A DNA stretch of 64,000 bases, the filler included, from Asterionella formosa (lineage: Eukaryota): assembly GCA_002256025.1 (NCBI GenBank). It is 13 parts of 13 records of this genome, joined end to end, with 100 filler letters (N's around TTAATTAATTAA, not from the genome) between each part and the next. Parts side by side here need not be neighbours in the genome. Positions count along the whole stretch, not along the records: positions 14,904 to 19,765 come from NKIB01013321.1; positions 19,866 to 24,727 come from NKIB01013322.1; positions 24,828 to 29,689 come from NKIB01013323.1; positions 29,790 to 34,649 come from NKIB01013324.1; positions 34,750 to 39,601 come from NKIB01013325.1; positions 39,702 to 44,551 come from NKIB01013327.1; positions 44,652 to 49,500 come from NKIB01013328.1; 6 more parts are not named here. The stretch is one strand, 5' to 3'. The stretch's first letter is position 1; the number at the start of each line of letters is the position of its first letter. The notes under the pieces were generated by a model. That model was not told the DNA's origin, made no database searches, and saw nothing but the letters and a program-made list of their open reading frames with translations. Positions 17,250-47,220 of the stretch are shown one piece after another. Made by a program: the position numbers and the translations under genes.

Positions 17250-19157
17250 TTGGTGGCTGCTATGTATATACATGACAGAAGATGAATGTTACTTGATCGT
17301 AGTGGGTCCTGATCTTTAACTTATGAATGAATTGTACTTCAGGACATTTCGTTGCCCATCGAGCATTTATACTTGAATTATACCATGCATAGCAGGTATG
17401 ATGTTTTCTTCCTTTGCCAGTACTCTTTCATAAAACATGATGCTCCCAAAATTTAATCCGTCAGCTTGTATGCTGCAAGAGAAGTACCTGGCCTTAGTAC
17501 ATTCTGTGAGTTTGCTCGCTCATTTGTCAAGCTGGTTAATTTTTTTATGATGGATTTTGTACAAAATACTATGATTCCTATAATGATAAAGAACATTTAC
17601 ATGATGGATTGCTCTATTTTGATACACCTATCAAAGATTATGTTAACTCATGAAACATTAAGACTGCTAACTATACAGATACGGAAAACTGCTGTTATGG
17701 CTGAAATAAATTTATTTAACCACAAATCATCAAGCACAATTCCAAATGAAATGATCTGTTGAAGAAACTGACTCATTGGGATATCAATAAAAATTTGGTC
17801 TTCAAAATTAAAAAGGGATTTAAATGGAACTGGTCCATTTTTCTGGTTACCTATGCATACATCAAGAAGCTTTTGAATCAATGAAAGAATTGTAAGTTGC
17901 AGATACACTCATGCGTTATCCTGATCGTAATTTTCCTTTCCATATTTTTTCTGATGTTTCTGATTGTCAATCAAGAAACTTTCAAAGAATTTCGCTCTAT
18001 GTCATTGAATACGGTTCTATATGTTCACACTGAGCATCGTATTTTTATTTATAATACCCTACACATAAACTCAACGTCTTCTCCAGTGGAGGCTTTATAT
18101 TGAAGAATATCTTCTCCTTAATTTTCAAGATGTGAAGGGTACTGATAATGCTAACTTTTACAGATTCTATCTCTCGCCTCCCGAGGCTTGAGTCTTTGGT
18201 GGGGGATGATATTGGGCCGAAATCTTCAGCATCAGCATCCACTTCTACTTTCTCAATTGAATTAGATGATGAACCTCAGTTCACCCGTTTTCTCAATCAT
18301 CCAATCTTGGAAGCCAATTTTCAATATCCTCTGGATTATAAATCATCAAGACATGAAAATTTCTGGAAAAACAATTGATTCAATACAGTCACCAATTTAC
18401 CAGAAATTTCACGTATCAATAATAAGACATCAGAATATTTTGCGATCAAATTTGAAAATGATTTGTTAGACAGATATCTCCGTCCAGAACGTTGTATACA
18501 TGACAATGGAGGTGAATTTACTGGTATTCCTTTCATACACATGTTAGTGTTGAATGGAATTAAAAATGGGACCATTACAGTCAAGAGTCCACAAACAAAT
18601 GCTATCTGTGAACGTTGACATCAATCTATCAGTAACAGTTCACGAATTATGTAAAAGGATCATCCTCCAATCAAGGAATTTCAAGCTCAAAATATCGTGG
18701 ATACCCTGAGCTGTTTGCTGCATCATATGCAGCTCGAGCTACTATTTCTAGCACATTGCCTATTTCACCACCAAGAATATGGCTGGTTTTTCCAACATGA
18801 TAGGATACTAAATATTCCTTTGATTACAGATATGCAATTGATATTGGGATATCAATGTCGATAAGTGATAATTGACAAATCTCTACATAGCGATAGTTTC
18901 TGTCGTCGTTCTTGTGATAACAAAGTTGGTGATGAGATTTAATCCTATTGAATAATCCTAATACCTTGGATGACCATGGACGAGGTCCTTATTCTATTAT
19001 TCAAGTATATGCCAATGCATGGTACAGTTATTTTTAGCGATCTTGCGCATCAATACAGATGTATATAGGGTTAGTGTTCTATTATATACATCAGAACTCA
19101 ATAATGAGAGAACTCGACTAACCCTTATTGTATACTTTGGTGTCGACTTAGAGAACA
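17250..19157 (+). mobile_element. Ty3/gypsy LTR retrotransposon remnant with an 83-bp 3' LTR
   Basis: Protease-like LLD.SGS; RT-RNaseH linker HQEAFESMKEL..ADTLMRYPD; RNaseH ETFKEFRSM..VHTEH..QRLLQWRLYIEEY..KGTDN..DSISRL; integrase CIHDNGGEFTG...SPQTNAICER; GPYSIIQVYANGTV; then TGTTCT...AGAACA at 19075-19157. Confidence 0.85.
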
Positions 19158-19199
19158 ATTTATACAATTAAAAAAATTAAGCAACAAAACATACCTAGC

Positions 19200-19600
19200 T
19201 ACGCAAGACTCTAAGTCTGCGAGAACGTTTTGCACATACAAATTCCGATTCCAATATTTTGGCGACTGTTGAATAAGCCGATCGGGTCGACTTTTTGGAG
19301 GAGGATTGCTCTACATCTGCGGGGTTTCATCAAGATTCAAGTAGATAGCCGTGTACCCTATAACGTCAGGAGTTAACTTCTGGAGAGAAACTGCAGTTAT
19401 GTATCGTAGATATTTAGAAAAGCTTCGCAGCCCCTTTTTTGACTATTTTTGCGATAGTTACAAATCTACGATACATTGCTGCAGTTTCTTTCCAGAAATG
19501 AGGTCCCCACCGTATCCGAAGATAGAACATACCCATAAGTCGACCCATGACTGTATCTAAGCATGTGCCAAGTGGTCGTATTGGTGAAAGCTAATTTCTC
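19200..19600 (+). mobile_element. Diverged relative of the internal right part of the MITE at 47525-48647
   Basis: Colinear similarity to about 48145-48535 (GATTGCTC, AGTTAACTT..GG.GAGAAACTGCAG, TGCAGTTTCT, GTATTGGTGAAAGCT). Confidence 0.6.
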
Positions 19601-22243
19601 CTTTAACTATATTATGTACTTTTAAGTAACATCTAAGCCGCGAAATACGCCACTTTTCGAAATTTCGTCTACGTATGAGTGTTAATTATGTGGTACTTCA
19701 CATGCATTAATGCCACTCTTCACGTAAAAAAGATTACTTTTAACGGTTTCATGTGAAGTTTTAACNNNNNNNNNNNNNNNNNNNNNNNNNNNNNNNNNNN
19801 NNNNNNNNNTTAATTAATTAANNNNNNNNNNNNNNNNNNNNNNNNNNNNNNNNNNNNNNNNNNNNTGGCCATGGAATTTTCATATTTTCTTTCTACTTCT
19901 TGATTGGCCTTCCTCTCTGTCCTCAGTTCCTAGCTATCTATACTAGCTGGTCTACACAAACTCTAAGAGCCTTATTTGGGCTCCTTGCCCTTTTTTGCCA
20001 TCTCTAAGGTTGTTTCCTAGTCTGCAACCCCTAAGAATCCCTCAATGGACTCGCCCTCACTGGTCATTCCTTTGGGGCCCAATTGGGCCCTAGTAGTAGT
20101 TCAGCCGACTCAACGAACTCCATGAGATTTGAGTTTCAATAAAAGCGTACTATAAAAATTTCATATTCCAGTATGTAGAAAAATATAGCAACATACAGGC
20201 TAAATAATTATATACTAGCGTCTACAAGGGCTACGGTATTTCGGGAACATCATATAAATTCAGCCATAGTAGTGCTGGTAAGTGAAATGTGATATGTATG
20301 ATATTGCAAATATAGCGGTACTCCGGTAGGATGTTGCATCAGGCGCAATGATGACTGTGACCATGTCTATAGAAATACCTTTACATACTAGTATGTTCAT
20401 AGTATTGGCAAGGCTATCAGGGAGTGGTGGTCATATGTATTCTTCATAGTAATAGGCATAAGGGTCATTCAGAAAATCTATTCGTACTTGCAAGTTCTAG
20501 CTAGTCCTCGTTGTCAGCAAATCCTAGTCATTTTCCGCAAATTCTAAAAGTAGAAAGAGACGATGATTCCTATTTAAATTCCGAAGCAAGAAGACGGTTT
20601 GCTGAACCGGTTCATCAGTCAGCAACTGATTTTGCAAATCGTCGTCGGTCAATATGAGTAACATTTTCCTAAAATACATAAGGAATATCATTTCCATTGA
20701 AAGCAGGTCTATCTCGTCTGGCAAGTATGGGACGAATCATCGGGAGTGAGTCGAAACTGACAAGGTGTGCTTACAATGTTTAATACCGGACCTTCCTCAG
20801 GAGGATCATGTTCCATCGTAGTATGTACATGTCTTACACACAGTATAATATTAAGTATGACTGCAGAAAAAACAATGGTACCTGTGCTCCCTCTGGGCGA
20901 AAATAGCTGCATCAATTCTTAGAATTTCTCTGCGCCATTTCTTCGACTCCCAAAATTTTCTCGTCTGCTTTCTCAATTGCTTTAATGTTCTAGCTGATCT
21001 AAGCATACTTTATATGCAATAAATTTAAAAATTGGCAACTATGTTTCAAATTTTTTTTGGGCTTTTTCGATTTTCACTCATGGCCATCTCGAGGAAAATG
21101 CAGATGCATCATGAGGATCCTCATTTTCTTCCAACAATTTATTTCTAAATACATTCATATTAAGATATAGCAGTAAAAGAATGGAAGCTTGAGTTTGATT
21201 GCTGAATGTTCATCCGCAAAAGTGGCAAATATGCCAAGGAAGAATACGATGGCATGCTTGCTTTGATCATCGGAAACTTTAAAAATCCGGCTGTATGGTC
21301 AATGTAAATGTAATAACCATAGAAAGTTTATGGAATGACTGTTATTCTCTCCATCGGAACAGCTAAATGTAACAACCGTAGAAAGTGTATGGAACAACTG
21401 TTATTCACTTCATGTTATAAATTAGGCGCGCTTTGATATTAAAATTTTTTATTTTATCATGTGTGTATTTTAACACAAAATATTTTTGCGATTTGATTCC
21501 TAATAACGTTGTCGCCCTGTGGTAATCAAGATATTTTAGATTAGTCATCTGACATTTTATATAAATTTAACTTTATTTTATAACAGTTATAGTTTCATAC
21601 TAGCAATGCATCCTCTTGCGTGTTATGCGGCCTCTTGTTGATTGTCCACATGAGTGATATAATTTCACCAGTGTCAGTCACTGACCTGCATGTCAGCTTA
21701 CCTCTCAACTCCTGATGAAAAGGATGATGCCATGAGTGAATTGTGTGATTCTTTTTCCTGAAAATATTTTATCATTGGCAGACCGATGTGAAAGGGCATT
21801 TGGCGATATGTAGATGTACCAAACGGATAGACCGGTATGTTTGTTAAATTGATTTCGAACAATTCATGTAGATGATAATTATTTGATTAATGATTGCACG
21901 TTTTTCCACATGCCTAAAAAACTAGCTAAAATGCATATTTTCGAGTAAGCCGACCCTCAGATTGAAAGATAGTATGTTGTACATGTAATCAGGTACCGTA
22001 GATGTGTACATTTAGACTGATGCTGGTAGTCTACTAATAACATACCCCTATGCATATACCGGCAAATCCCGCTCCAGCTATCGTCTTGCCATTCGGGTAC
22101 TTCTAAAAAATTTTAAGGTTCTAAGCAATTTCTTAAGTAATTTTTATTTAGGGGCAATATGTGGTGATAAAATATATGGAATCCAACGAATCGAGAATCA
22201 ATATTCTTAGTAGTGATTAGAAACCAAGACCCAAAACATCTCG

Positions 22244-22432
22244 ACATTTATTGACAAATGACTTGAGATGTTTACTTATTGACAAATGACTGGACTGGAG
22301 ATGTTTACTTATTGACAAATGACTGGAGATGTTACTTATTGACAAGTGAATCAGATGCTCACTTATTAACAAAAGAATAAGTGCTGCTCACTTATTGTCA
22401 AATGAATAAGCTTACTTATTGTCAAAGTAAGC
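22244..22432. repeat. Degenerate ~27-bp minisatellite (ACTTATTGACAAATGACTGGAGATGTTT)
   Basis: About seven units sharing ACTTATTG(A/T)CAA, decaying rightwards. Confidence 0.8.
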
Positions 22433-24190
22433 AAGATCATTTTGACGGGATCAAGGAAAGTGTGAGAAGTCTTGTTCGGGATTACATGAGGAATCAGGCA
22501 AGAACAAGACTAGATAGACTATTAACAGAAAGCTCACAATATTACAAAGTGTAAAGTGAAAATACGTTTTCAGCTTTAGAGATCTTAAAAGTAAGATCTG
22601 CGATATTTCAACTAGACAATTTAACAATGTGGCACATCGAAATTTTCGGCAACAAAATTGCCGATTTTAGCATGACAACCAGAATAACGGTATTATGCAT
22701 AGAGATGGTACACCAAGCGAAAAACACACGAGAATGATTGTAACAACATGCAACATCAATGAAAATTGAACATGATGTTTGGAGCAACCAAAGTATGAAA
22801 TGCGATGTAATAAGTAGCATCAAATGAGAAATAGAAAAAATTGTTTTGGGTTAGAAATGATGTAAAAAGGAAGAGTTCCAATGGAGACGTATGCATTATG
22901 ACATTGTAGTACTTACACACCAGACAACATTGACTTTCCATCACCACATAATCGAAGACCGAAAGAAGAAGATCAAAAACTGAACCCAATGTAGACCTGC
23001 ATCGTTATATAGCGTAAATGGTCTGGTTTCTGCAACCATGCGCATCGCTGTAGTAGCCTGACACCAGTAGCAGTATTTCCGCCACAGTCATTCCTCTCTG
23101 CCGCCCACCAAACAAGCAACCCTGATCATTCCATTCTGAGCAAGCGTGATCGCCACGCTGCTCCAGCACTATTGACTCTCTCTAGCTGAGTATTCATGTA
23201 GCTTCTGATACGAACTCGTAGTAGAAATGTAGCAAAGCGCGTTAGCAGAAGAAAAGCATTGCTTGGCGGCAATATTGACATCATTGTCAATGATACAAAT
23301 CAACAAATACGATTAACAACGGCACAATACCACATCTTCAATGAGTAGTCATTGATAAATGCATTGGTTCTTATGTAGGTATATACAATCGAAATAAAAC
23401 AACAGTGCGTAATGACAAACAACGATGAAAGTGATCAAAACAAACCACGGAAGCAATCAAATCGGAAAGTCGATAAATACAATCTACAATCCACATTCAG
23501 TATTTCACTGTTGTACTCACCGATCCGCTTCAACTAGCATAACAAGCAGCAGACAATGGGATAAAGGAAAGACGAACGTTGCCTATTGCAAGCCCGAATA
23601 GAGTCAAGGCAGGCAAGATAGAGTGAGAACTATATTTGTGAGGACGAAATCGGGCATTTGGTGCGTAAAATCAATGAATATGTGAACGATATAATTCAAC
23701 ATTTCAGGTCTCGTAAAAATAATACCGAGTCTACAGAGATAATATTATAACGTGTTCAAAGTAAGCGTTAAAGCAAAGCTTAAACCATGCATGGTTGTTT
23801 TTAGTACCACGTACGGCCATAAGTAGACTAGATGACTGCCGGTACCGGTAGAATATCCGTGAATCATCATCACACGCATGACCGGAGCAAAAACTTGCCA
23901 CCAACATCAGATGTATCGATATCATCGTTTGTCCGACGAAATATGGACGATGCGACTCCATGAATGCCTCGAGACGACAAGCAATCCAACTACAATCCGT
24001 ATCCATTAGGCAAAGAATCGCTACTGGCGTCATCGCGGAACTGATTTCACTTCAAACCGGTCATGATGGACGACGATTGGCATGGTGAAAGGTGAATTGC
24101 CGGAGTCCACTTTTCAGGAGACGAACAAAAAACGATGTGAATTATAGATATAAATTAAAAAAAATCTGTAAAGTATATAAAATGGTTTCC

Positions 24191-24545
24191 TTAAGGTTCC
24201 TGCATTTGAACCCCTAGGCAAAAATTAATATATTGCTTAGGGTTGCCGAAACTCCCTGGAACTAAGAACTTTTATGTGCTAATTTGAATATCAATGATTC
24301 CGTTTGAAATATTCAAATGAGTGGAAATTTACGCGTACTTATGTAGATTCCATTTCAAATGCATTAAACATCGATTGATAGATTCTTCATCGCTGAATGT
24401 TTTACATTGCTACTCTACCGATAGTATACCTACTCGTATCAAAAAATATGTATCACATGCACGAGCCGGCGGCTCCGAAAAACATTTGAATGAGCATACT
24501 AACGGAACTATCGTACTGGTAAGCGTGCACTACATCTAAGCCGCG
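24191..24545 (+). mobile_element. Left end of the TIR MITE family (partial copy)
   Basis: TTAAGGTTCCTGCATTTGAACCCCTAGGCAAAAAT..., aligning with 47525-47870 over about 350 bp. Confidence 0.85.
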
Positions 24546-25158
24546 TATTACGTGAAGTGACCATCACATAAATAAGCCTAGTTGATTTTGAATGCATCAC
24601 ATGAATTAGTTGAATACATCAAAATACGTAGTTGAATATATCTATATATTATCTGAATACATCACGTTAAATATTTGATCAAAGTATCATGCATGCATTC
24701 CTGATCATCACTATATTATGTGATCACNNNNNNNNNNNNNNNNNNNNNNNNNNNNNNNNNNNNNNNNNNNNTTAATTAATTAANNNNNNNNNNNNNNNNN
24801 NNNNNNNNNNNNNNNNNNNNNNNNNNNGTAGTCGGAAGACGAGATTACACATGGCTGATATTTACTGGTATGATTCAAACCACGAAGCACTGCCATCGTC
24901 ATCACGCCTTAGCTACAACAGTGATCCACTAATACACAGTATGTACGACACGACCCAACAGCCAAAATTGATGTCTGATGTGGTATAATACCGGTAGCAG
25001 GTACCAGTACATGAAAACGACTTTTTGCTCCGCCCCTTGTCGTCATTTGTTGATCTCAAGCCGTGCTAACCGCCCGTTGGCTTGCCATTTGTTGAGCCTG
25101 CCCAACAATACATTCACTTACTTGCTCCTTCCATCACTGCGCTAAAGTGTCAATCTCA

Positions 25159-27933
25159 ATGCCTACCGACAACAGAGGAACAGCGGCTGGTGCTTCCGCT
25201 GGAGTCCTAGGCTCCATCGCTGGAAGCGCTGACCATCAAGGGAGGATATCTGATGTGACAACGACTGGATCATTTGACGATGCCAACAGCAACAAGAGCC
25301 CGTTGGCGGCACGCTCAACATCTCCCCCTCACAAATCCAGGCTCTATGATGCAGCCGACGCTGAGATTCGCACAGCCAAAGCCATGGCCTTGGCCATCCA
25401 GGCCAATCCCACTCTGACTCCGGAACAAGTACGGGCGCTGGTTGGAGCACAAGACAACCAGCAGCTCGAGCTCATCCGGGATAGTCCCCCAAAGCCAAAG
25501 GAAACGATGGGGAGCTTGCTGATTCCAGGAAGACTCGCTAGTGCCTTTGCCACATCAGTCAAGAACCTTCACGTGGACGTGACGAATGCCCATGTCAAGA
25601 CAACAGCAACGACGACGACGACGACTCTGTCTGCGTCGAGCGTGCTCCGATCAAACAAAACGAACTCGCCCCTTTCGGCCCTACCGGTGTCCCCGTCGTC
25701 ACCTAGAGCCAAGGACCGAGTCAAGGCTAGTTTACGAGGCCTGACAGAGAGGAAAAACCTGAAAAAGTCGGCGAAGCTACCTCCCGACGAACAACAGGTC
25801 CGACTGACCGCCATTGTGTGGAAACGACGATCAGGATTGGGAAAACTCTCTTTGCATGCATGGGAGCGCCGAAGAGTAGTTCTACGCGGATCCATTGTGG
25901 AGTATTACAAAACGGAAAAGGAGGAGCAGCGAGTGGATGATCCATTGGGATTGTTGCTGGACGATGGAGGAAAACCAGATTCGGAAAGCAAAAATACAAA
26001 GATTTCATGGCTTGAAACAGCCGCAGCCAATTTGGAAAAAGCAAAGGCCAATGTAAATTCGAGCCTGGCCATGTTGAAGAACCCTAATGACAATCTTGAT
26101 CCCAATGCGCCCAGAGGGGTTTTGGATTTGGTCAAGGAACGAGCGACCGTCGCTGCAGCGACGGGACATTCAGGAGCACCGACGCCCTTTGCCATTTCCA
26201 TTAAAGTGCGGGGAGAAACGAAATGGAAGTTTTGTCATGACTCTCACTCCGAGCAGATGGAATGGCTGGCGGCGCTGACAGATGTAGTGGTCATGTGCAG
26301 CGTGGATTCATATAATGCACAATTGCTCCTTATCGCAGATCCCACTCATGTCGACACTAGTGTTTTTGGCAATACGGTTCATAGACCGCCGGAGGAGACA
26401 GATGGGACGGCGGCTGCTGGAGGGCATAGACTTTGGGAGCTTCAAGAATATGCTGTGTCGTCGCGAAAAGTCCAAGTGGAAGATGACGAAGGCGAGAGTG
26501 AAGTGGAAGAGAGTGAGGTGGATGAAAGTGAGGTGAACGAGGATGATATGATCGTTGGAGCCATCAAGTCGCGAAATTTAATAAACTTGGAACTCATTAC
26601 GCCTACGGCATCGTCCGCTTCTGAAACCTTGGTGGCGCCTGCCGCCGAAGTGAATATTGGTCCAACGGTTACTATTCGAGAAAATGATCTTTACATTTGT
26701 GTTGTGATTATCAACGTGGCAATGGTATATTCTCATGCTTCCTCGACCACAGCGTCAAATTTTTGGTACATTGTTACCTTCGCTAATCTTGGTCTTTGGG
26801 TACTCATAGCAAAAGAAGGCAAAAAGAAGGCAGTTGAGCAAGTGCCAAGTCAAGGCATTGATACTGCGACAGCGACAACACCGGCTAAGGCACCCACACC
26901 GAGCGCCGCAACTGTCACCAGAAGAACGACTAAACGAGAAGCGTTCAGTGTAGCAGTTCCGCCATCCAAACCCTCTCAAAATACGGCTGTCGCTTCCACC
27001 TTTAAACCTAATGCTGGAAGTACAACTGTCGAGATTCATAACCCCACTGATGTTCCTGAAAAAGATGGCCACATATTCGCCGCATGGAGGAAGCCAACCC
27101 CTGACTTAATGATTCGATCCCATGGATACATGACCAATGGAAAGAAGAAGGTTCCCTCGCCGGGTACTTTGTATACTGTTCTTTGTTCCGATATTTTTGA
27201 ATCTCAGAATCGCTATCCGGACATGGCTCCTCGGGTTCATCTTCCCACAGTGACGTTTGACGACGATGATCAACCAAAGACGTGGCGAGCACCAGATATA
27301 TTTGTCATTTCTGTCTCTCTCCCCACAGATCCACCCAAGCTAACAAAAGCAACTGACGATGGTGGCGGTTACACTATTACCATCTATATGGGCATGGCAC
27401 CAGAGACACGTAACATTCTGAGGAGAATCACTGCAGATGACTATGATCCATCAAAGGAACCTTCCAATGGCGATATTCAAAAGTCGAAGATCAATGCTGT
27501 CAAGTTATTCGAAGAATGGTGTCGTCGTGCACCCAATGATTCGAAATTCATGTCTCGCTTTAAGCTAGTTCCCAACGCGCAGAATCTTAAGGAGATTGGG
27601 ATGCCAGCTTGGATCACCAAGTACAACGGAAAGCCTGTTCTTATTAAGCGCCCTGGTCAAACCGGATTTCTTTATCAACATCCCGAACTCTCGTGTATTG
27701 AGTTTGATATTTCCCTTCACCCTTTTCCTTATTTGGCCAAGCAAGCGATTTGCTACATGAAGGAAAACTTTTTCAAAAAGGTCCTTGTTACTTTCGGATT
27801 TGTGATTGAAGGCCGAGCTGACGATGAACTTCCCGAATGCCTGATTGGACTGATGCAATTGTGCTATCCAGATCCACTCTATGCCATTCAAGCAGAAGAT
27901 GTCTTTGCTGGAACTAGCGTCCGATCATGTTGA
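25159..27933 (+). CDS. PH domain plus transmembrane hairpin plus EDR2 C-terminal (DUF1336) protein
   Basis: PH: VWKRRSGLG..AWERRRVVLRGSIVEYYK...WKFCHDSHSEQMEWLAAL. Two hydrophobic helices. EDR2_C motifs MIRSHGY..KKKVPS, RFKLVP, YNGKPVLI, EFDISLH and GFVIEGRADDELPECLIG. First ATG at 25159. Confidence 0.85.
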   Translation: MPTDNRGTAAGASAGVLGSIAGSADHQGRISDVTTTGSFDDANSNKSPLAARSTSPPHKSRLYDAADAEIRTAKAMALAIQANPTLTPEQVRALVGAQDNQQLELIRDSPPKPKETMGSLLIPGRLASAFATSVKNLHVDVTNAHVKTTATTTTTTLSASSVLRSNKTNSPLSALPVSPSSPRAKDRVKASLRGLTERKNLKKSAKLPPDEQQVRLTAIVWKRRSGLGKLSLHAWERRRVVLRGSIVEYYKTEKEEQRVDDPLGLLLDDGGKPDSESKNTKISWLETAAANLEKAKANVNSSLAMLKNPNDNLDPNAPRGVLDLVKERATVAAATGHSGAPTPFAISIKVRGETKWKFCHDSHSEQMEWLAALTDVVVMCSVDSYNAQLLLIADPTHVDTSVFGNTVHRPPEETDGTAAAGGHRLWELQEYAVSSRKVQVEDDEGESEVEESEVDESEVNEDDMIVGAIKSRNLINLELITPTASSASETLVAPAAEVNIGPTVTIRENDLYICVVIINVAMVYSHASSTTASNFWYIVTFANLGLWVLIAKEGKKKAVEQVPSQGIDTATATTPAKAPTPSAATVTRRTTKREAFSVAVPPSKPSQNTAVASTFKPNAGSTTVEIHNPTDVPEKDGHIFAAWRKPTPDLMIRSHGYMTNGKKKVPSPGTLYTVLCSDIFESQNRYPDMAPRVHLPTVTFDDDDQPKTWRAPDIFVISVSLPTDPPKLTKATDDGGGYTITIYMGMAPETRNILRRITADDYDPSKEPSNGDIQKSKINAVKLFEEWCRRAPNDSKFMSRFKLVPNAQNLKEIGMPAWITKYNGKPVLIKRPGQTGFLYQHPELSCIEFDISLHPFPYLAKQAICYMKENFFKKVLVTFGFVIEGRADDELPECLIGLMQLCYPDPLYAIQAEDVFAGTSVRSC

Positions 27934-27978
27934 AGTAATAAAGTAAAATCTGATTATTTTTACATTTCAAGATTTCCC

Positions 27979-32000: not shown

Positions 32001-32226
32001 AAATAATATCGATTCTTGATTAGCTACTTATTCTTATTCCTGTCGATATCCAGGATGCATTTGTCGCAATTACCCAAAGGGAAAGCGACAGATGGACACC
32101 AGAATACAAGAACTTCTATCCCATGGTTATCGATCAATTATGATAGGTTAGCATCGAATGTTGAATGTTACAGCGGGGCCCTGCTTCATTCCAATCCGAA
32201 AGTAGTTCATCATTTTTTCATATCAA

Positions 32227-34749: not shown

Positions 34750-36846
34750 AATTGAAACGCAGCATAGCAGGCGATATGCACAAAGAAGCATGAGACCACT
34801 GTCTATTTATAGTAACAGAGTGATTCTGGTTTCGTAATTTTCATGTCTCATTACATTTCCTTTGTCATTGTACTAGTTCCTTACCTTTGAAGACAGGAGC
34901 GTATTCTTTGATGTATCTGGAATATTTTAATGGATGGCAGAAGTTGGATTTAGACACAAACCTCGACAAAAGCACTAGTACTTTGTAGATGTTCATGAAA
35001 ACAAGCGAGACACTTCGGCCTATCGAACACCAGCCAGTCTATACTGCAAAAATGCAAGAAGCACAAGTTGAATGCCCATTTATGGATTCAAGTTTCAGTA
35101 GTGCAACAATGTAAAATATTAGAAACCGGAAGTCACATTTCATCTAATTACAGTTTTCATTAGCTATACTAGCTAGTATGCATTGATTGGTAAGAGGAAG
35201 CAATGGTAGAATGGCTGCCACACGGGTGGGGGCAAACACAGAGATTCCTACTAATGTTTCTCCCCAATGATCCCAGACCCTTCTTGAATGTCACTTGCTA
35301 CCGAAAATGGAGAACAGCCGTCATGATCTGTTGATTGTTGCTTTATGGTGCCACAGAAATCTTAATGAGTTGCTTGTTTTCTTGACTTGAATGCAAAAGG
35401 GATCGAAACGAATGGAAAAATCAGAAGGGAACTAAAAATTCTCTGCAAACATCAGAGCAATTGTGAAAGAGAAAGGAAGGTTGGGAGGGGAAGTAAAGGG
35501 ATTATTGCTTGTCTTGCGGGAACAAGGATGGATTGACCCAAACAATGTTGACAAATAGGTACCTACTGGAAAAGGAATCAATGCTTTCGGCATCATCAAT
35601 CTATACACAAGCCTGCAACATCTGATGTCGTCAATGTAGCTACCTCGACTTCATCAATGAAGGAGTCAATGGGTGGATCATGTGAGGAAAGTCGGGGTTG
35701 AGGTTTTATTGACGCCAATGTGGGCCTGCTTGGCGAACTCCTTGCAGATGAAGGCATTGAGTAACCTGGACCTGTGAAGCCAAAGGATAAAGAAAAATCT
35801 ATGACAAGGGTGGTGAGATAGTGTTTAGGAAGGGGGAGCAAAAGTTATCATAGCTGAATGCATTCGAAACTTGTATAGACAATAAATGGTGGCATACCAT
35901 GGCTGCTCTTGGCTGACAGTTGCCAAGTCAAGTACAAACACAATAAGGGTGCACAAAAGAGAGTCAAATTTTAATCGACTGGCTGATACTTATTTGTGAG
36001 AATCACCATTCTGCAATGGGGTGGACTTTGATCATTGCTTCGTTCGAAGCAGAATCAATTCGAATGCTGTCCATTGAAACAGCCAATGAAAACAATTGTG
36101 GCGAAAAAGCGCAGAACAGATCAAGGGATTTCAAAGGAATTAAAATAACAGGGCATATATGATGGACTGCTCCTTTTATAAAATATATTTGATCATTTCC
36201 ATATTTCATACGATGACTCCTCTCGCCCATCCATTAGCTAGATATGCAGCCATGTTGCGATAATTCTACAGGACCTATAGGATTGGTAGTCTGGTGGTCA
36301 TCATTTCCGCATTGTATATACCAGTAGGAGTCATGTATTCATGCATGCTGCAATATTTCTTACAAGACATAAAAATTTGGTAGCTGGGGGCTATCACTTC
36401 CATACTGTATACATGGGGGAAGGGGTTGCATGCATAAGCAACTACTCTGGAAAAAACTATGATTTTTTATCAATAAATTTTGATTTGTTTATCCTATACC
36501 TTTGATCATAACATATTGATCATATGACAAATGGTGTTGTCGATGAGAAATTGAAAGATCAAAATTTATTTTCAAGAATCAGCCAGAATTAATTGATCTT
36601 AAAAATATGATCAAATAATCCTAAAGAACACATGAGCATATTCAGTTTTCCGCTGCACTATTGTGGTATTTCCATGATGGGAGTAATTACCAGCAATTAT
36701 ACAGTACTACCGGTAGGCCATATGAATTTTGGTCAATATGTCTATATACATAAATGTATGATTTCGACCATTTGAAAATTTGGTGATGACTCCCGTTTAT
36801 TAAGGGGCTTAATTGAATCAGCCACTGACTTGTAGGTACAAGAATT
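34750..36846 (+). mobile_element. Repeat family A, copy 2
   Basis: Reverse complement of 44652-46800. Decayed translation EGWEGK..GLLLVLREQGWIDPNNVDK..AFGIINLYTSLQHLM..DFINE..VGVEVLLTP..ADEGIE. Confidence 0.85.
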
Positions 36847-37075
36847 GACACACAAAAAATTGAAAAAATTCAACAGGTTGTGGAAAACTATGAACTCATC
36901 ATGCATTGTATATATTTGAATTATGCATGATCAAAATTGATATTAGTATACACAGGATGTGCCGTATAATGAGCGTGCTTAAAACTATGCAAATGCTCAA
37001 CTATATATACATTTAAAACTCTTACAAATCTTTATATATATGTATTCATGGCTGAAACATTTGAAATCATGTTTT

Positions 37076-37379
37076 CATGTTCCTTGTCATGCATACACTT
37101 TGCTCCTGAAATGAAGGATCATCACACATGATGATGCGGAAAACGAAAGTGATAATACAGCACAATGAGCGATACTTGCGGCTTAGAAGAGAAGGGCGGA
37201 GTCAATTGATGGTAACAAGTCAAGAGCAAATGCCTTTCATGTTCCTTGTCATGCATCCACTTCCTGAAATGAAGGATCTGAAGCAACACATGATGCGAAA
37301 AACTGAAGTGACAATACAGCACGATGATACACCATGCGGCTAAGAATGAGTGAATATGATGGAGAAAGGGCGGAATCAA
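37076..37379. repeat. Diverged tandem duplication, ~160-bp unit
   Basis: CATGTTCCTTGTCATGCAT...CCTGAAATGAAGGATC...AATACAGCAC...GGGCGG occurs twice. Confidence 0.75.
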
Positions 37380-37429
37380 CAAGCTGTGCATAGCATCATG
37401 GTTTGTCAAGAGCAAATGTCAGGATGATC

Positions 37430-38520
37430 AATTGCTGGGATTAAAAATACGGAATGACTTGTCCCCTTTCAATGATTCAATAGCTCCTTTTCGATTTGGT
37501 GGCTGGCCAACCATCAATTTTTGTCAAGAAACTTGTTTAAAAACATTTTAACATCTGACACTTTACGACGTTCACATCCAATATCAGGATTATCAGCATC
37601 CTCAGTTGAAACCAGGCAATCACGACAAACATATCGTCGATATAATCCATTACCACCCCTGAAGCCACAAATTTTATTCTGTTCTTCTGTATCACCAATG
37701 ATCATTCCAACTTGGAAATAAACTTTTGTCATACCAAAACCATGAACCCAAATATCGTATGACTTGTTTGGATCGCTCTTCGAAAGGCAACAATAGAAAT
37801 CCTGTAACAGAATGATATAATTTGAGTCTACATAAGGACAAGTTGTCACCAGATAACTTATTGTTCATTTGTTTCTCCAGATCACTGACTTTAATGTCTG
37901 GCAAAAGAAATACTAATTGCCATCCATCAACTTTTTTCTTCCTTCTAACGTTAAGTTTAACATTGTCAGCAAAAACGGATGCTCGGAATGTTTCATTTGT
38001 TTATCAATAGGTGAACCATCACTGAAAACTGCTAAGGCAACAAATAAATACCTTGTCTTGACTTCAACACTCCATTTTCTGATGCAGGAGAATTGTTGAA
38101 TGCATTTTCAAACCAAGTCGCAGAAGTTACTTCGTCATATATGCATGAGTTCTCCACAAGTTGTAAGTTTCACTTGTGGGTGACATACAAAATGTTGCAT
38201 GATATCGGAATCACGTGCATAGCAATCCTGCCATGAGCTGTACTGGTTCGAAATAATAGAGTGTGCGTGGGATGATCATATTTGAATTGATATCAATCTT
38301 TATTCGTTTGGTCAACAGTTGAACACCAGCTAATGTTGGTGGAAATGAAATATCCATGCGTTTTTTCAAAGTCTGGTAGGATGGAGCGAGCTTGATACCT
38401 TCCATCAAAATATTTCATTGCTTTTGCCTTGAACAGCCATTTCATTAGATGATCAAAGTAAACTGGTGGAAGATAATTCTTGTTGAGGAATAACATGAGT
38501 TCTCATTCGATTGGATGTGC
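37430..38520 (-). mobile_element. Plavaka/CACTA-like transposase remnant
   Basis: IYDEVTSATWFENA, LAVFSDGSPIDK...HPFLLTMLNL..GWQLVFLLPDI and MIIGDTEEQNKICG...CRDCLVSTEDADNPDIGC, spread over several frames. Confidence 0.6.
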
Positions 38521-40005
38521 GCATGTTCAGAGAATGTTTACTTGGAAGTTGAAATTGAGGAGGAAGGGGCATTCCATTGCATTTTCAGGGAGAAAGCCGG
38601 TGTGATCTTGGAAATCTGAATATTGCATGGTCTCTTAGTAATTCAATCCTTGGAGAGTTTTAGTCTCAATTTTTCATCTTGTTGTGACTGAATATTGTTA
38701 TAAATTGAATTGTCGCTGTCATCATTAAATGGATGATTGTGGCCACTTGATTCAAGGAAAGGACACATAATCTCTTCTTGTTGTCTACTTCGTCCCTAAA
38801 TGCTGCAGCAGTTACGCTGCCATTAACTTCTTTCCTTGAATGATTCGATGCGCGCACTACCGCAATACATAGTTTCATTATGTATTCCAGGAACTCGATG
38901 TTCTTGCATGCAATGTCAACAATGACCATATGCATAAAGAACACGGTTGCTACAATTTCGATTGTGAGACTCAGATGGGGATTTGTTCTTCCGAAATTTG
39001 TAGTTACACAGATAACACCATTGCAATTTGCGCAAAGACATTGCAAATTGCAAATGATGACCAAGTCAGGATATGAACAGGATAGAATGAAAATGAATTA
39101 ATATTTAATAATAAATTGAGCACCACTTCGAACATACTGTGCTGGAAAATACAGAGTCGTGAAATTATCACTCCACCAGCATAGTAGTGAAAATGGAGGT
39201 ATACCGCTACATGTAGTACAGGCGGCACTAATAGTAATAGTAGCATAGAGCAGAATCAATGTTTTCCTATCATCTATGATATGGTTTGTGCATTGTAGAA
39301 GTCTCACACTAACTATAATTATTATGTAACTACTAAGTATGCATTGGATTCTATTAGATCCATTCAAAATCAATGTCGTCATCAATGTCCCGTTGATTAA
39401 TGCGTTCATTATAATCAATAGTCTTCTCAGGAACATTTGGTTCAAGTGATTCAACATATTGATGTATATACTCTTCACTTACGCTGGGAAATGAGAAGTA
39501 TGAGTGTGGGTAGATGATATTTGCGGTGGGAGTAGCAATTCCACTAGGATTCCTTCCATATTCAGATCGATTCTTTTGTGAAAGTCCAGTGTAGATTTCC
39601 TNNNNNNNNNNNNNNNNNNNNNNNNNNNNNNNNNNNNNNNNNNNNTTAATTAATTAANNNNNNNNNNNNNNNNNNNNNNNNNNNNNNNNNNNNNNNNNNN
39701 NCGCAACGGGAGGATCTAAGTCGTCATTCTTTCGTTTCTTGCGACCCATGCTTGTTACCAGGAATTCAATGCGACTAGAGTTCAATGAATAGAATAGAAT
39801 CGAACTACCGGTAGAATATAGCAGAAGCCGGATCAAAGCGAATGTGTGCCAAGCATGAACAAAATCATAGCTGGCCACACTAAGTTGGAGCTAGGGTGAC
39901 AACGTGTAAGTAGAAATAATCACATACTTCATATTACGTATTTAGTGAATATACCAGGACGTATTACGCATATATTATAACTGGGTAGGTCATGACATCC
40001 TGACC

Positions 40006-41220
40006 ATGAATACTCAACAATATGATGCCAAAGAAAACTTGGAAACCCTTTCCATTGAGATGCTTTCAGAATATATACATGACAAGGCCATACCAGCACT
40101 GGTCCATTCGAAATTCAATGAACCTGTTGAGGAGGAAGAGGAGCAGAGTGTTAGTGCTGCACTTGAATTGGACTCTGAGGAGTTAAAGTCAAAATTGGAA
40201 CAAATTCTAATTGCACATGGAGCAAAAGGTACTAAGAAACTAGCAAAACAGTCAAAGGCACAAGAACACAACTTACAAATGGAAGAAACTAAAGCAAAAG
40301 TTATCAAAGTATGGGAAAATAAACCAAAGGATCTGTTGCAGATACTTTGGGAGCATAGATTTATTGATGAAATGAGATTGGATAGTAGCCTAGCTACACA
40401 TGGAATGGAAAGCAGGATGCATTTGGATTTTTCCAGAAATAATTTTGGTTGAAGTTGTTGATGAGAAAATGTCGTGATTTTGAGGAAGAGGAGACACTAT
40501 AGCAGTCAATGGGAAGGAAATCTGAGTACTTGTTGACCAAACACTGAATGTCACTGTGAACATGCGAGAGAGAATCAAGTAGCTATTCTTGGGGTTGTGC
40601 CAAGAGTTTTTCATGTCTGGTTGCTCTGAGGAGGAAAGGGAAAAGGGAAATTCAGGTAGTATGTTGTGTGAGAGAGTACATGTCAAGGGACAAAGTGTTA
40701 ACAACAAAAAGTGAGAAATTCTCAAGGCAAGCAAGACAAGATATATGTGCATACTTCAAGATTTGGAAAGATCTTGATGAAGCAACGAAGCAAAAGATGA
40801 CAGGATGGACACTGAAGTTGACACAACAATCCATGAAGCGGACCCAATCAGTGTTTAGAAGCTTTTCAAAAAAGATTCAAAACACACTGCTGTGCCCTTG
40901 ATTTCGACAAAACTTTCTACAAGGCAAAACATGTCTAGTATGATCTGACATTCCAAACAACAAACCAATGAAGTAAATAAGAAACAAGCAAAAAATCAAC
41001 AAACATGAATGACAACAACAGATTGATGTTACATTGTACCTTTTGTGGGGAAATGAGCGAAGGGCAACATTTAAAAAACAAATATTGCATCAATTTTGTG
41101 TGCATGTCACAATATTTCACTCTTACTTATTAAATTAAATCCATTCTAAGGCCTTTGTATCAAACTAAATTGATCTTCAGGTTGTAAACAGCTATAGATT
41201 TTGCAAGTTGCGGTAATTTT
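40006..41220 (+). mobile_element. Decayed DDE transposase remnant (same subfamily as 12600-13723), internally deleted
   Basis: ENLETLSIEMLSEYIHD joined to WENKPKDLLQILWEHRFID, ECHCE..SWGCAK and KFSRQARQDICAY. The 3' non-coding region aligns with about 13370-13520. Confidence 0.7.
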
Positions 41221-44200
41221 GCTTCTTCATGTAAACATCCCCAAAATCCCAAAACCGACAAAAAATGTTTCTGGACTTGTTGGCAGCTGCTAGTAAGAAA
41301 TCAAATGTATGAAACTTCTTACAGTTTGTGCCCACCGGCCATATAAAGACGACAGGAAAAAATAAGGGACAAAACAGGTGTTCATGAATTGTAATTTTGG
41401 GTTGAAGTACTTTGGGACTATGTTAGTTTAAGTAAATGGACTCTTCTTTAAGCAAACATACATAAAGTAAAATATTGCTTAAACTGGACAAACATGACAT
41501 AGTAGTAGTCTTTTTAATTCATTTGTACATGCTGCCAATTTCACTACATACAGAAGGTCATCAAGTTACCGGTACTCTCCCATCGGCACATGATTGCCAA
41601 GTACCGATATGGTACACAGTAGACCGGTTTTCATATGTGGCGGTATATAGGAATGGGCTGCTGCACATTACTACTACTATAGGGCATTACTGGTAGTTTT
41701 GACGACATCATACCAGAGCATAAGCGTCACATTCTTTGTCGGCTTCCACAAGGACTATCTACAAATTGCCTATTCGTAATCAATCAATTCTCAGTAGGTA
41801 ATAGCCTTACTTTCACATCTTTTGCTTCGATTATTCATGTTACTGGTTGCTGTAGTCGTAGCCTTATTTGTTGCGTAGCTACAGTAAAAGTGTTGTATCT
41901 GCTCGTAGCATCATTGTTTCAAAATTGCGCATCTCTAAATTACATGAAAAATTTGCAGCGACTTCAATTTTCGTTGTCTATATAAGTGTTATTAAGATTA
42001 TCCTTTTACGATTGTATTTTCTATGTAGTGTTTGATATATGTATCAAATAGGATGATAGTGTCATTCTCATTTTTCGTCGAGATATTCGCTATTTTCATC
42101 ATGGTCAACGCTGTGACGACATGATGATGAAGGATTCTCCAGCCGCTTGCAACTATGACTACTGCTATTCTATAGCGTATTCTAGTATATGCAAAAGAAT
42201 AGCATTTTTTCAGCTAAATAATTATATTCCAGAGCAAATGCATTCTACCTCGGGCACTACATACCCAGTGCATGAATCCAGCCATACTTGTAATATATAC
42301 CGGTATGAAATGTAGATTGTTCACTTCATCTTTCATTTATTAACAGATATTCAATATTGTTAGCTACAGTATGATTACATAGGTCGAAGGTGGGTGTGAC
42401 AGCAGCTATGTTGAAATGATGACATCACAATGAGCAAAATTGCTCCTTAAAACGGTCATTACCAATGGAAGCAAATGGCAGAATAAGCAAAACAGATTGG
42501 TCTCAATATTTCTGGCTAAATCAGATTGAAGCTAAAAATATATTGGAACACCAAGCCGACAAGTTTGGTTCATTAAACGGATACCAAGAAGAGACACATG
42601 TATCAATCGGGAATTCGAATCAGTATTGCCGGTACAAAGTCATACATGGCCTAGAACTAGATATAGGAATATTACCGCAACTTGCTGAGCGCATGATTTA
42701 TCTGTACTGGTAGTCTCAACGCATTTTTACCAGTGAAAGAACATTTACCAGTAGACAACTGTTATTCTTTAACAAATGATACAGTTTCACACCAAATCAT
42801 CAATTAAGCACCAATGTCAATGTAAATCATGAATATCCATGTAATGCTATCAAGCATCCTAGTGGGGAGAATGATGGCTTAGTGCTGGTTTTCATATCTT
42901 GTGCGGCGGCGGGTTAGATTCCTGCATTCTCCACCTGTCTTTTTCATGTAGTCACTAGGGTTCCGGGGTGTGTGGCTGACGAAAAGACTCGTCCCATTTT
43001 ACCATATGGATGAATAAAACCGGTACTAATTGTGTCCATTTATTTGGGCCTAAGTGCGATTATTTAAAATGAATTGACATTATATCATGCATCCTAGTGA
43101 ATTTAGTAAAATTATCTATATACAGAGTAGTAACACTAGGAGTTGATTCCTACAACATTCATTAGGATCAAGTTCACTAGTAACCAGAGCTTCGTTTTCA
43201 GTTTCATGGATTGGTCGGATTCGATTGAAGGTCGATGGGCTCTCGCTTCAATTTCAACCCTTTGATTATTCAAGAATTTTTATATCACTTGAAATATACA
43301 GCTTCATGGTGGGGCTTTGACTTGTCTTGGCTTCCAGTGATGATGCTCTATTGGTTCTCGCCTCCCCTTTGAGACTACAGCCCGCCCGCCTCTCAACTGA
43401 ATATTTATTCTTCCCAGCTGTCATGAATTTACTTCTTTTGATGCATTGCTTGTTACAACAAGATAGACTTAGCTCTTTGTGTAGAAAGATCATCCTGGCT
43501 CAGTCAAGAAGCAAGGCCAGACTCTGCCAACACTATTGATGTATTGTTCCAGGGTGCACCTGGTATGTGTTACTGCACTCCGGAGCACCAGGTAACTCGA
43601 AATGATATGTTAGGTCGTCATGCTGCATCACAGTATACACCAGTAGGTAGCTACATCCGCCATTTGTTTGGCTGGGCAGGTTCACCTCATCTATTGGACG
43701 ACATGTCGCTCCCAATAGATATACATGTTTTGACTAGAACCTGGGACTCCGGAGTGCCAGGGTGAGTATCAGTTACACAGAATATACTTGGCTACCAGTA
43801 ATAGTCTACTGGTAATAAATCCATGTTCCATGTTTAAAGCTACCACATTAGGGACATCACTATTACCTGTACTCGTGCATCCATTAAACATTCAACAACA
43901 TGCAATAACGATATAGTGGGTTATCCATCGTGTTCTAGCTACCCCAAGCATTACCTATGAAAAATACGAAATGCTCTAGAACCGGTAGGCGCATTTACCA
44001 AGACAAATGTGCCTTTTGAATAACTAATACATTGTCTCATGGACACAGTCGGTTACTGGTACCTGGTAGTCAACTCTACGATACAAAAAGGAAAAATTGC
44101 TGGCAACTAGTATTCTGTTAAATTACAAAGCCCCGGTATATACCTATTTGTAGCGCGTCGTTCATGTTTTTTACTTTGCGAGTCTGGAACACAGGTAGGC

Positions 44201-44651
44201 ATTCCAAAATACGGAAATAATGTTGCTAAACAAAACTCTGAGATTTTCAGGTACATAGGCAAAGTTACACCAATTGGTAATGGGCCAAATGTAATATTGG
44301 GTAACAACGACATTGTAAATCTCGGCTTTGCATTTGGCATGTGCAATCGCCATGGCAGGAACTATTTATGAAAAGAAGAAGTTTGTGTGTGAGAGAGTTT
44401 GAGTTGGTTGGAGAGGAATACCTTGATATATTATCGATCGATCCAAATATGAAGCCCAGGGGCCTTGGCCTCTGAACCAACGTACCTCGCCAAGAACTAA
44501 GGGCATCCGCTAATTCAAAAACATAAAAATAAAGCGGAAAAAAGATAGCCANNNNNNNNNNNNNNNNNNNNNNNNNNNNNNNNNNNNNNNNNNNNTTAAT
44601 TAATTAANNNNNNNNNNNNNNNNNNNNNNNNNNNNNNNNNNNNNNNNNNNN

Positions 44652-47220
44652 AATTCTTGTACCTACAAGTCAGTGGCTGATTTAATTAAGCCCCTTAATA
44701 AACGGGAGTCATCACCAATTTTTCAAATGGTCGAAATCATACATTTATGTATATAGACATATTGACCAAAATTCATATGGCCTACCGGTAGTACTGTATA
44801 CTTGCTGGGAATTATTTCTATCTCGGAAATGCTACAATAGTGCAGCGGAAAACTGAATATGCTCATTTGTTTAGGATCATTTGATCATATTTTTAAGATC
44901 AATTAATCCTGATTCTTGAAAATAAATGTTGATCTTTCATTTTCTCATCAACGACACCGTTCATCATATGATCAATATGTTATGATCAAAGGTATAGGAG
45001 AAACGAATCAAAATTGATTGATTAACAAAGATCATAGTTTATACCGGAGTAGTTGCTCATGCATGCAACCCCTTCCTCCCCTGTATACAGTATGGAAGTG
45101 ATAACCCCCAAGCTACCAAATTTTTATGTCTTGTAAGAATTATCGCAGCATGCATGCATATGTACATGACTCCTACTGGTATATACAATGCGAAAATGAT
45201 GACCACCAGACTACCGGTAGTACCAATCCTATAGGTCCTGTAGAATTATGCATCGCAACATGGCTGCATATCTAATGAAAGGGCGGGAGGAGTCATCCAT
45301 GCTGCACCTGTATAGTATGAAATATGGAAATGATCAAATATAGTCTACACAAGGAGCAGTGCATCATATATGCCCTGCTGTTGTTATTTTAATTCCTATG
45401 AAATCTCTTGATCTGTTCTGCGCTTTTTCGCCGCCACACTTGTTTTCATTGGCTGTTTCACTGGACAGCATTCGAATTGATTGTGCTTTGAACAAAGCAA
45501 TGATCAAAGTCCACCCCATTGCAGAATGGTGAGTCTCACAACTAAGTATCAGCCAGTCGATTAAAATGGGACTGCCTTTTGTGCACCCTGCCTTGCTTGT
45601 TGTGTTTGTACATTGACTTGGCAACTGTCAGCCAAGAGCAGCCATGGTATGCCATCATTTATTGTCTATACGAGTTTCGAATGCGTTCAGCTATGATAAC
45701 TTTTGCTCCCCCCTTCCTAAACACTACGTCACCACCCTTGTCATAGATTTTTCTTTATCCTTTGGCTTCACAGGCCCAGGTTACTCAATGCCTTCATCTG
45801 CAAGTTCAGCCAAGCACGTTGGCATCAAGAAAACCTCAACCCCGATTTTCCTCACATGCTCCACCCATTGACTTCTTCATTGATGAAGTCGAGGTAGCTA
45901 TATTGACGACGTCAGGTGGCGCAGGCTTGTGTATAGATTGATGATGCCGAAAGCATTGCTTCTTTTTCCCGTAGGTACCTCGCTATTTGTCAACATTGTT
46001 TGGGTCAATCCATTCTTGTTCCCGCAAGTCCAGAAGCAATTATCCCTTTACTTCTTCTCCCAAGAACCTTTTTTTCTCTTTCACAATTGTCCTGATGTTT
46101 GCAGAGCATTTTAGTTCCCTTTTGATTTTTCCACTGGTTTCGATCCCTTTTGCATTCAAGTCAAGAAACAAGCAACTCATTGAGATTTCTGGAGGTTTTG
46201 GTCAGTGGCACCATACAGCAACCAACAATCAACAGATCATGGCGGCTGTTCTTCATTTTCTGTAGCAAGTGACATTCAAGAAGGGTCTGGGATCATTGGG
46301 GAGAAAACTTAGTAGGATTCTCTGTGTTTGTCCCCGCCTGTTTGGCAGCCATTCTACCATTGCTTCCTCTCAATCAATACTACTAGCTGGTATAGCTAAT
46401 GAAAACCGTAATTAGATGAAATGTGACTTCCGGTTTCTAATATTTTACATTGTTGCACTACTGAAACTTGAATCCATAAATGGGCATTCAACTTGTGCTT
46501 CTTGTATTTTTGCAGTATAGACTGGCTGGTGTTCGATAGGCCAAAGTGTCTCGCTTTTCATGAACATCTACAAAATACTAGTGCTTTTGTCGAGGTTTGT
46601 GTCTAAATCCAACTGCTGCCATCCATTGAAATATTCCAGATACATCAAAGAATACGCTCCTGTCTTCAAAGGTAAGGAACCAGTACGATGACAAAGGAAA
46701 TCTGATGAGACATGAAAATTACGAAACCAGAATCACTCTGTTACTATAAATATACAGTCTCATGCTTCTTTGTGCATATCGCCTGCTATACTGCGTTTCA
46801 ATTCTAGATGTATAACGTTCTTGTTAGAGAGACGATGTTACTACAGAGAAGTTGGTTGTGCTCTTCTATAATGGATGCTGTTTAGCTATGATTGAGGTTG
46901 TAACACTGATTGATGCTCTGGTGACGTTTTCATTGGATTTCTTTTCAAGCTCTTAACGGATTGCATATGAACCAGTAATGTAGATGATGATTCATCAAAG
47001 ACATATGATGACTTGAACGACAAATGAAGATTTTATCACAAACACTCATTCCTCTCCTCGACATGGCTGCTTTGTCGTTGTTGCAAGAATCAGAATGAGG
47101 ACTGGCAAGGATGACAAGCCAAACCACATTACTTTAACTGGTACATTATTCTACCAAAAATTTAAATAAAGGAACCTAAAAGAAACAATACATAAAATAA
47201 TTAAATTTCCATAGTCAAAA
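44652..47220 (-). mobile_element. Repeat family A, copy 3 (longest, at least 2.5 kb)
   Basis: Overlaps copies 1, 2 and 4 colinearly. Confidence 0.85.

Follow-up and report, generated by a model that had tools for sequence, protein, structure and literature searches.

In a 64,000-nucleotide stretch of DNA from Asterionella formosa (assembly GCA_002256025.1), which will be referred to as the window, and in related contigs of this genome, the commonest multi-base insertions in repeats consist of a duplicated dinucleotide around G, C or GC. We interpret these insertions, termed scars in the following, as footprints probably left by the excision of Plavaka DNA transposons in the same genome. The link to Plavaka is the new element here; from the pattern of the scars we further propose how the transposase may cut. 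The source assembly comprises 68.4 Mb in 15,436 contigs, and the window is a string of contigs of ~4.9 kb with N spacers between them.

A stereotyped insertion class in repeats

Repeat copies were aligned to natural reference copies in 43 tiles of 1.2 kb, drawn from ~855 kb of sequence, a sample corresponding to 1.25% of the genome and enriched for the families searched. The minority allele was scored as derived, which set the polarity of insertions against deletions. Positions covered by fewer than six copies, alleles at a frequency of 1/3 to 2/3, events without six matching bases on each side, alignments of <75% or >99.9% identity and duplicates across tiles were excluded, yielding 703 distinct insertions and 295 deletions. 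With XY representing any dinucleotide, the scar classes are XY-G-XY and XY-C-XY (+3) and XY-GC-XY (+4).

Insertion lengths peaked at three (232) and four bases (213). XY-G-XY or XY-C-XY accounted for 177 of the three-base and XY-GC-XY for 121 of the four-base insertions, so that the scar class comprises 298 of the 703 distinct insertions (42%). Simulated chance for the XY-GC-XY rule was 0.9% with random 4-mers and 12.5% with plain tandem duplications. The two-base duplication, with both target copies kept, was present in 194 of the three-base and 162 of the four-base insertions, and plain two-base duplications made up 15 of the 703. At unambiguous two-base duplications the one-base filler was G in 53, C in 37, T in 6 and A in 4 cases (n = 100), and the two-base filler was GC in 54 of 75, compared to eight for CG and its decay products CA and TG together. 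Copying of the filler from the flank was ruled out by 54 GC events having neither C before nor G after. The pattern emerged first in one non-autonomous family (family A, see below) and then in a set of four families; 53 of the 213 four-base events were common to at least two copies. The initial annotation of the window had described a four-base insertion of constant GC with a two-base duplication that breaks the frames of transposon genes. This is supported by the census and is best read as a transposon footprint; GC fillers do dominate the +4 insertions, but the larger +3 class had been missed.

In hexamer counts, the whole XY-GC-XY class occurs 714 times in the window compared to 407 expected (1.75x), whereas ten other fillers gave 0.99-1.22x. 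Repeats had 2.01x the expected number and long frames 0.99x. Non-coding DNA in which no repeat was matched gave 1.54x; repeats were recognised here from the sample, so that unsampled ones may be hidden in it.

Insertions of this kind mimic replication slippage or assembly error. Perfect tandem duplications amount to 94 of the 232 three-base and 31 of the 213 four-base insertions, as slippage would produce, and the four ATGCAT sites treated below are known from assembled contigs only. On the other hand, C before and G after XY are preferred, so that many scars merely look like perfect duplications; among 175 unambiguous events, 154 do not need a tandem template and 144 carry G, C or GC as filler. 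The same insertion recurs on independent contigs, which argues against assembly error, and long frames lack the class. Slippage or sequencing and assembly artefacts are thus a very improbable source of the scars.

Comparison of L130, a mostly single-copy stretch of 10 kb, with contigs of four public runs gave no unambiguous GC scar among the 12 of 22 indels listed, the four sites lying outside this small stretch; the listed indels include one TA-TG-TA and, in a repeat, one perfect duplication that can also be read as TT-GC-TT. When metagenomes were scanned for relatives, just three loci of 91-99% identity were obtained. The runs containing window sequence are mostly freshwater and algal metagenomes.

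The ATGCAT sites and the range of target dinucleotides

Four ATGCAT hexamers, at 17853..17858, 19015..19020, 35178..35183 and 45248..45253, had originally been taken for independent insertions of the same four bases. Their positions were verified, as were the empty AT sites at 4627..4628 (homologue of 35178) and 36260..36261 (homologue of 45248). Because the window is a join of contigs, the four sites represent only three contigs. Three of them were shown to be insertions by comparison with sister copies. The AT-GC-AT scar at 35178, in a copy of family A, was found in 2 of 31 distinct covering copies, the window copy and the independent contig L002, the remaining 29 lacking it. The one at 45248, in a second copy of family A, was private to one copy in a 34-copy alignment. 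The scar at 19015, in a gypsy-type element, was missing from the sister copies listed, e.g., L034, L042, L043, L044, L051, L053 and L054. For the site at 17853, located at a frame break of the gypsy-type element, the argument comes from the reading frame only: the four bases were present in 30 of 30 distinct copies retrieved (29 exact, L059 with one substitution), and the empty allele was not seen among them. These copies were the best-scoring matches, and the sample is therefore biased to carriers. The frame switch suggests that 17853 represents one old insertion that was spread by amplification.

Scars of the same class at non-AT sites were detected nearby. In the window these are a TA-GC-TA scar at 36235..36240 and a CA-GC-CA scar at 36580..36585 (minority alleles in three and two copies, respectively), a TA-GC-TA scar of a family A sub-lineage at 4463..4468 (eight copies), and two scars of the +3 class, AA-C-AA at 35000..35004 and AA-G-AA at 36624..36628. 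Among the 121 GC scars, XY was TA in 27, AA/TT in 24, CA/TG in 23, GA/TC in 16, AT in 11, AG/CT in 8, CC/GG in 6, AC/GT in 5 and GC in 1. AT targeting or AT duplication, which had been proposed from the four sites, was not supported, as AT is present at the background level of 10.4% (p = 0.72) and occurs in 14 of 211 scored scars. The enrichment of ATGCAT exists (136 occurrences on both strands of the window compared to 74.7 expected, 1.82x), but it is not specific for AT, TAGCTA (3.54x) and CAGCCA (2.12x) being more enriched. The insertion class is real; the AT specificity is not.

These data also bear on the element initially suspected, an AT-duplicating transposon of the ISL2EU type. In its favour, all four sites are AT, DDE_Tnp_4 transposases are present in the genome, and ISL2EU elements, members of the PHIS group, share the two-base duplication. 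However, their strict target is A|AT|T (PMC4482050), and none of the four empty contexts reads AATT. With AT at or below background among the scars, this origin is refuted as a general cause; it might account for a small AT subset at most and is the least probable of the explanations considered.

High-copy Plavaka transposons with CG...CG ends

Family A, which bears two of the four sites, is a non-autonomous element of ~4.3 kb with the highest scar density (body at 34750..37516, plus strand). It starts with a terminal repeat beginning CGTCTGCAAATAAAAA, which also closes the second (right) end, for which 745 first-look candidates were found genome-wide. In the window the left terminal inverted repeat marks the start of a family A copy at 3744..3759 (plus strand), its first C decayed to T at CpG, and the right one is located at 53129..53144 (minus strand), followed by an AT target dinucleotide and matched by 12 empty homologues. 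Elements with such ends are designated P1. A two-base target duplication was found in seven out of nine paired P1 elements (GT, TT, CA, TA, AT, AA and CA), and two nested cases were compared with 22 and 8 empty copies. The terminal dinucleotide of 81 element ends was CG in 49, TG in 14, CA in 14 and another in 4 cases, i.e., 77 of 81 are CG or decay products thereof.

The longer form, P1 proper, contains a decayed transposase gene. The decayed gene at 37517..39601 (minus strand) sits between P1 ends, with a GT duplication, on C12322, and a homologous stretch on C8482 scores 32.3 bits to PF18759 (cut-off 26.3). Individual fragments of P1 (window 37517-37864, L097) did not match Pfam models by themselves but did match L206 with E ~1e-8; L205 and L206 themselves reach 50.7 and 42.2 bits. 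Motifs of the C(2)C and H(3)H type are present as CREC and HQQMH in L205 and L206 and as CRDC and HGMKH in the frames of L097. The longest P1 open frame among the 150 matches listed has 557 residues, which suggests that P1 is largely decayed. A further family, P2, begins CATCTAAGCC (window 19630 and 24533) and possesses near-identical ends and intact transposase frames in L205, L206 and L207, that of L207 having ~1000 residues. In the window, one end of this young family is located at 19630..19765 (plus strand), continuous with intact transposase frames elsewhere, and the other end type at 24533..24727 (plus strand), inserted beside a copy of family B, a miniature element described below. Altogether at least 43 Plavaka matches of several families were obtained. 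The genome thus contains a high-copy Plavaka (CMCT) DNA transposon with CG...CG ends and a two-base duplication of any sequence.

The closest described systems are PlavakaB of Agaricomycotina fungi (PMC12730594) and the red-algal Plavaka elements (bioRxiv 10.1101/2025.02.11.637652), which share with the elements found here the PF18759 transposase, the C(2)C and H(3-4)H motifs, C-initial ends, a variable two-base duplication and a large size with accessory frames. Fungal PlavakaB has CATCA..TGATG ends and two- or three-base duplications, and Plavaka has been grouped with EnSpm, Transib and RAG1 (PMC12730594). Compared to fungal CATCA, P1 begins CGTCT (3/5) and P2 CATCT (4/5), variants of the fungal terminus with the C...G polarity kept. 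PlavakaA elements have TGT..ACA ends. No excision footprints are described for the fungal or red-algal elements in the accessible parts of these two sources, no Plavaka excision is reported in PMC9674265, and the available text of PMC4015899 gives CACTA footprints as lengths only. Neither footprints of Plavaka nor insertions of the class reported here were described in the literature searched, most subscription papers being outside reach and the red-algal preprint being available without supplements. In Fig. S2 of PMC12730594, both clear three-base duplications of PlavakaB-2_SLL begin with C, and at one junction the element lies between AA-G and AA, where the additional G may correspond to that of the scars; these are very few cases.

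Several further observations concern these families. The intact Plavaka frames of L207:412-3429, L205 and L206 share the P2 end, and four downstream frames on L207 (488, 204, 194 and 261 residues) are candidate accessory genes. A third Plavaka-like end, beginning CATCTACAACGCC, is nested in P1-type copies (L030:2278, L198:707). In L093:2333-2628 a P1 copy switches to transposase sequence of the L206 family (95% identical), which may represent a chimera or a nested insertion. Family A carries a decayed frame (window 35400-35900 and 39949-40452) that bears an LLxVLxExGWID-like motif and has a relative on another contig; no Pfam match was obtained for the second frame. Motifs of this kind occur in Tc1-like transposases.

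Scars share the target preferences of Plavaka

We compared 80 distinct element flanks, counting both ends of paired elements, with the 211 scored scars. The XY spectra of flanks and scars were alike (chi-square p = 0.87), and both departed from background (p = 0.0015 for flanks, 6e-19 for scars), TA being ~3x enriched and CG absent. Outside XY, C at position -1 had a frequency of 0.42 in element flanks and 0.33 in the 242 half-sites of the 121 GC scars compared to 0.19 in the background, and both sets contained few T at -2 and -3. Log-odds over positions -1 to -4 correlated between flanks and scars with r = 0.87, and out of 5000 XY-matched random sets none reached the score that the element flanks obtained with a model of the scars. 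A site model derived from element flanks alone separated the 121 scar sites from background with an area under the curve (AUC) of 0.74, whereas the controls, 295 deletions and 80 one-base insertions, gave 0.51 and 0.49. Taken together, these findings argue for Plavaka excision as the likely origin of the scars.

Alternatively, a different, unseen element having G...C ends, a two-base duplication and a one-base stagger might have left the scars as its direct footprints; a PHIS-type or a sister Plavaka family would be candidates. G...C ends had also been suggested by the initial annotation; so far, all two-base-duplicating elements found have C...G ends. By analogy to the footprints of Sleeping Beauty (PMC7827188), such an element would account for the fillers G, C and GC without further assumptions. 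PHIS transposases are abundant here (423 first-look candidates, 150 scored matches, ~40 identical frames of 335 residues), PHIS ends often start with A or G (PMC4482050), and the several Plavaka families offer room for a relative. Nevertheless, no recurring G...C terminus with a two-base duplication occurred among the matches listed from the ~855 kb, in which the PHIS family ends were not read; nested ends among these matches were of P1 (at least 13), P2 (at least 4) and family B (at least 3), with the sampling favouring P1. Known PHIS targets are sequence-specific (AT, TWA, ANT, CWG and TNA; PMC4482050). Although the identical PHIS copies arose very recently, hardly any scars are present in family B, which is itself young. 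An unseen element would, moreover, have to share the target bias of P1 by chance or kinship. We therefore consider it unlikely. One candidate for a G-initial end proved to be interior to the head of a tRNA-like repeat. The PHIS/Harbinger-type transposase, present in ~40 identical copies mostly at contig ends (e.g., C191:6-410), probably reflects a very recent burst.

Breakage by a host enzyme of the Spo11/topoisomerase VI type, leaving a two-base 5' overhang that is filled in, with subsequent untemplated addition of G to one 3' end or to both before joining, would be a further source. SPO11 breaks carry such an overhang (PMC11922745), GGC and GCC fillers occur in 5 of 14 five-base events, and scars are apparently enriched in non-coding DNA without a repeat match as well. 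Against this stand the rarity of plain two-base duplications and the uniformity of the fillers. Untemplated addition is usually much less uniform. The same bias is found at the insertion sites of the element itself, which makes a second enzyme unneeded, and a steady process should scar family B in proportion: 1 scar was found there compared to ~8 expected even at 4 per 100 substitutions (p = 0.003). This explanation appears less likely still than an unseen element.

A possible mechanism of Plavaka excision

If the scars derive from Plavaka, the element would enter by converting XY to XY-element-XY, and later excision would leave both XY copies. A C...G-ended element must keep its 3' G to propagate, and direct retention of its ends would therefore give CG. 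The filler found is instead the complement of the element ends, which points to a hairpin on the flank. In the model we propose, the transposase would nick one base inside its own 5' end and the opposite strand would be attacked at the junction, leaving the terminal C at the tip of a flank hairpin. The host would then open the hairpin 5' of the tip, and fill-in would put G on each 3' end. Joining of two filled ends would result in GC (+4), whereas joining with the loss of one base or across a mismatch would yield G or C (+3) in similar numbers. Given a Plavaka origin, we regard this hairpin chemistry, each step of which is conjectural, as having about even chances.

It is established that hAT, Transib, RAG and Muta1 form hairpins on the flank (PMC5499845), and at Ac/Ds joints the base from the hairpin tip is recovered as the complement of the flanking base that adjoins the element (PMC5873905). 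The scars resemble the footprints of Ac/Ds and of Transib and RAG in having a complemented base at the joint, for which a flank hairpin is the best explanation; in those systems, however, this base is flank-derived and site-variable and target bases are lost, whereas the scars have a constant base and two intact copies of XY. With Sleeping Beauty and other Tc1-mariner elements (PMC7827188) the scars share both target copies around a short constant filler and the near-equal frequency of two fillers, here G and C. These elements differ in their strict TA target and in a filler that equals the element end; here any dinucleotide serves (TA in 50 of 211), and the filler has one or two bases complementary to the C...G ends. 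Plavaka would accordingly form a flank hairpin after cleaving one base inside its end, a register intermediate between those of mariner and hAT/RAG, and write the complement of its terminus into every donor site. It would thereby have become the leading source of insertions here (298 of 703), the scars forming a genome-wide record of enzyme chemistry and past targets. We hold this complete account to be possible rather than probable.

Several findings weigh against a Plavaka origin or against the chemistry proposed for it. A footprint allele was sought at 15 element junctions with at least three homologous sites and none was detected, few being expected in so small a set; the link between scars and Plavaka is therefore statistical. 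Two of the nine paired elements (C2882, L007) lack a target duplication. The filler reads G..C, opposite to the CG of plain end retention. For the combination of a nick inside the element and opening on the opposite side, both of which the model needs, unlike Ac/Ds, we found no precedent. Longer fillers lend little help, as 8 of 14 five-base events are palindromic compared to 5.5 expected, in a small set, and 5 of the 6 non-palindromic ones are GGC or GCC, which would also be expected from untemplated addition of G. Yeast Spo11 favours C at -2 and A at -4/-5 from the dyad (PMC11922745), which resembles the flanks of XY in the scars (C at -1, A at -3), although the fit is loose. Among events scored as deletions, 7 of 29 four-base and 15 of 30 three-base cases fit the scar rule; some events must therefore be mis-polarised, most simply as old scars that are now majority alleles. 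Finally, scar density is ~4-fold apart among families of similar age, for which base composition gives no explanation.

Two alternative sources of the fillers within known elements were rejected. A three- or four-base stagger with the terminal C as a 5' flap predicts that at about half of the ends a target base would stand in for C, whereas 77 of 81 ends are CG or decay products. Family B, with its GG...CC ends, makes a fixed duplication of four bases, TTAA.

Age and extent of the scars

Per 100 private substitutions, family A had accumulated 9.0-9.1 private scars, the P1 transposase 4.0 and the gypsy-type element 2.1-3.4, compared to 1.9 for the right end of P1 and 0.5 for family B. Predicted site quality was similar in all of these (0.85-1.16). 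Family B is younger (8 compared to ~15 substitutions per kb), with 1 scar per 204 private substitutions. It is nevertheless hit by P2, and the near-absence of scars from it suggests that most of them date from the activity of the now decayed P1. Between family A and the P1 right end, equally old Plavaka-type parts, scar density differs by ~4.7-fold, which base composition does not explain; as a guess, local hopping near element ends may have caused the excess in family A.

Family B, which served as an almost scar-free internal control, is represented in the window at 47525..48647 (plus strand) by a 1.1-kb TTAA-flanked copy, and also at 24189-24530. Its members are 1.1-1.2 kb in length with GGTTCC...GGAACC ends, a TTAA target, undecayed CpG and 575 first-look candidates.

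By rough extrapolation of the hexamer excess (~2.6 per kb in repeats and ~1.1 per kb in other non-coding DNA), the genome may contain tens of thousands of +4 scars. The scar class accounts for the widespread frameshifts in the transposon genes of this genome and in those of the element itself. Excision footprints are usually known from a few revertants, whereas here a single class forms the large share of distinct repeat insertions given above, with target bias as its one tie to the element. Should the Plavaka link hold, the scars would provide the first sequence evidence we found on cutting by a Plavaka-type transposase, from a group related to Transib and RAG1. On this reading, excision of an intact P2 element is predicted to result in two target copies separated by G, C or GC.

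Further features of the window and of the contigs sampled

The most enriched hexamers belong to a second, TA-specific class (TACCGGTA and related words), present in the window at 47840-47960 and 15250-15300 and genome-wide. Miniature elements with TA-CCWG ends are located at 41205 and 60008. This CCWG-ended, TA-flanked family was rejected as a source of the scars, since it forms a separate TA-CC(W)GG-TA class with few of the insertions listed. A dispersed repeat with a tRNA-like head and a B-box-like word (C11255:28040, C2882, L165:1245) is possibly a SINE, and a ~400-base insertion beginning TGTCAAG in several hosts (L081:188-587, L060, L083) is probably a solo long terminal repeat. The N runs of the assembly spacer surround TTAATTAATTAA and recur every ~4.95 kb (first at 4872-4971); they join unrelated contigs, so that neighbours in the window are not adjacent in the genome. 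At 9941-12016 lies a long frame with internal repeats, in which a chromo domain (E 7e-14) and a weak zinc finger were recognised. Tandem genes for major-facilitator-like transporters are found at 55062-56744 and 57737-59218, 86% alike over the first 300 bases.

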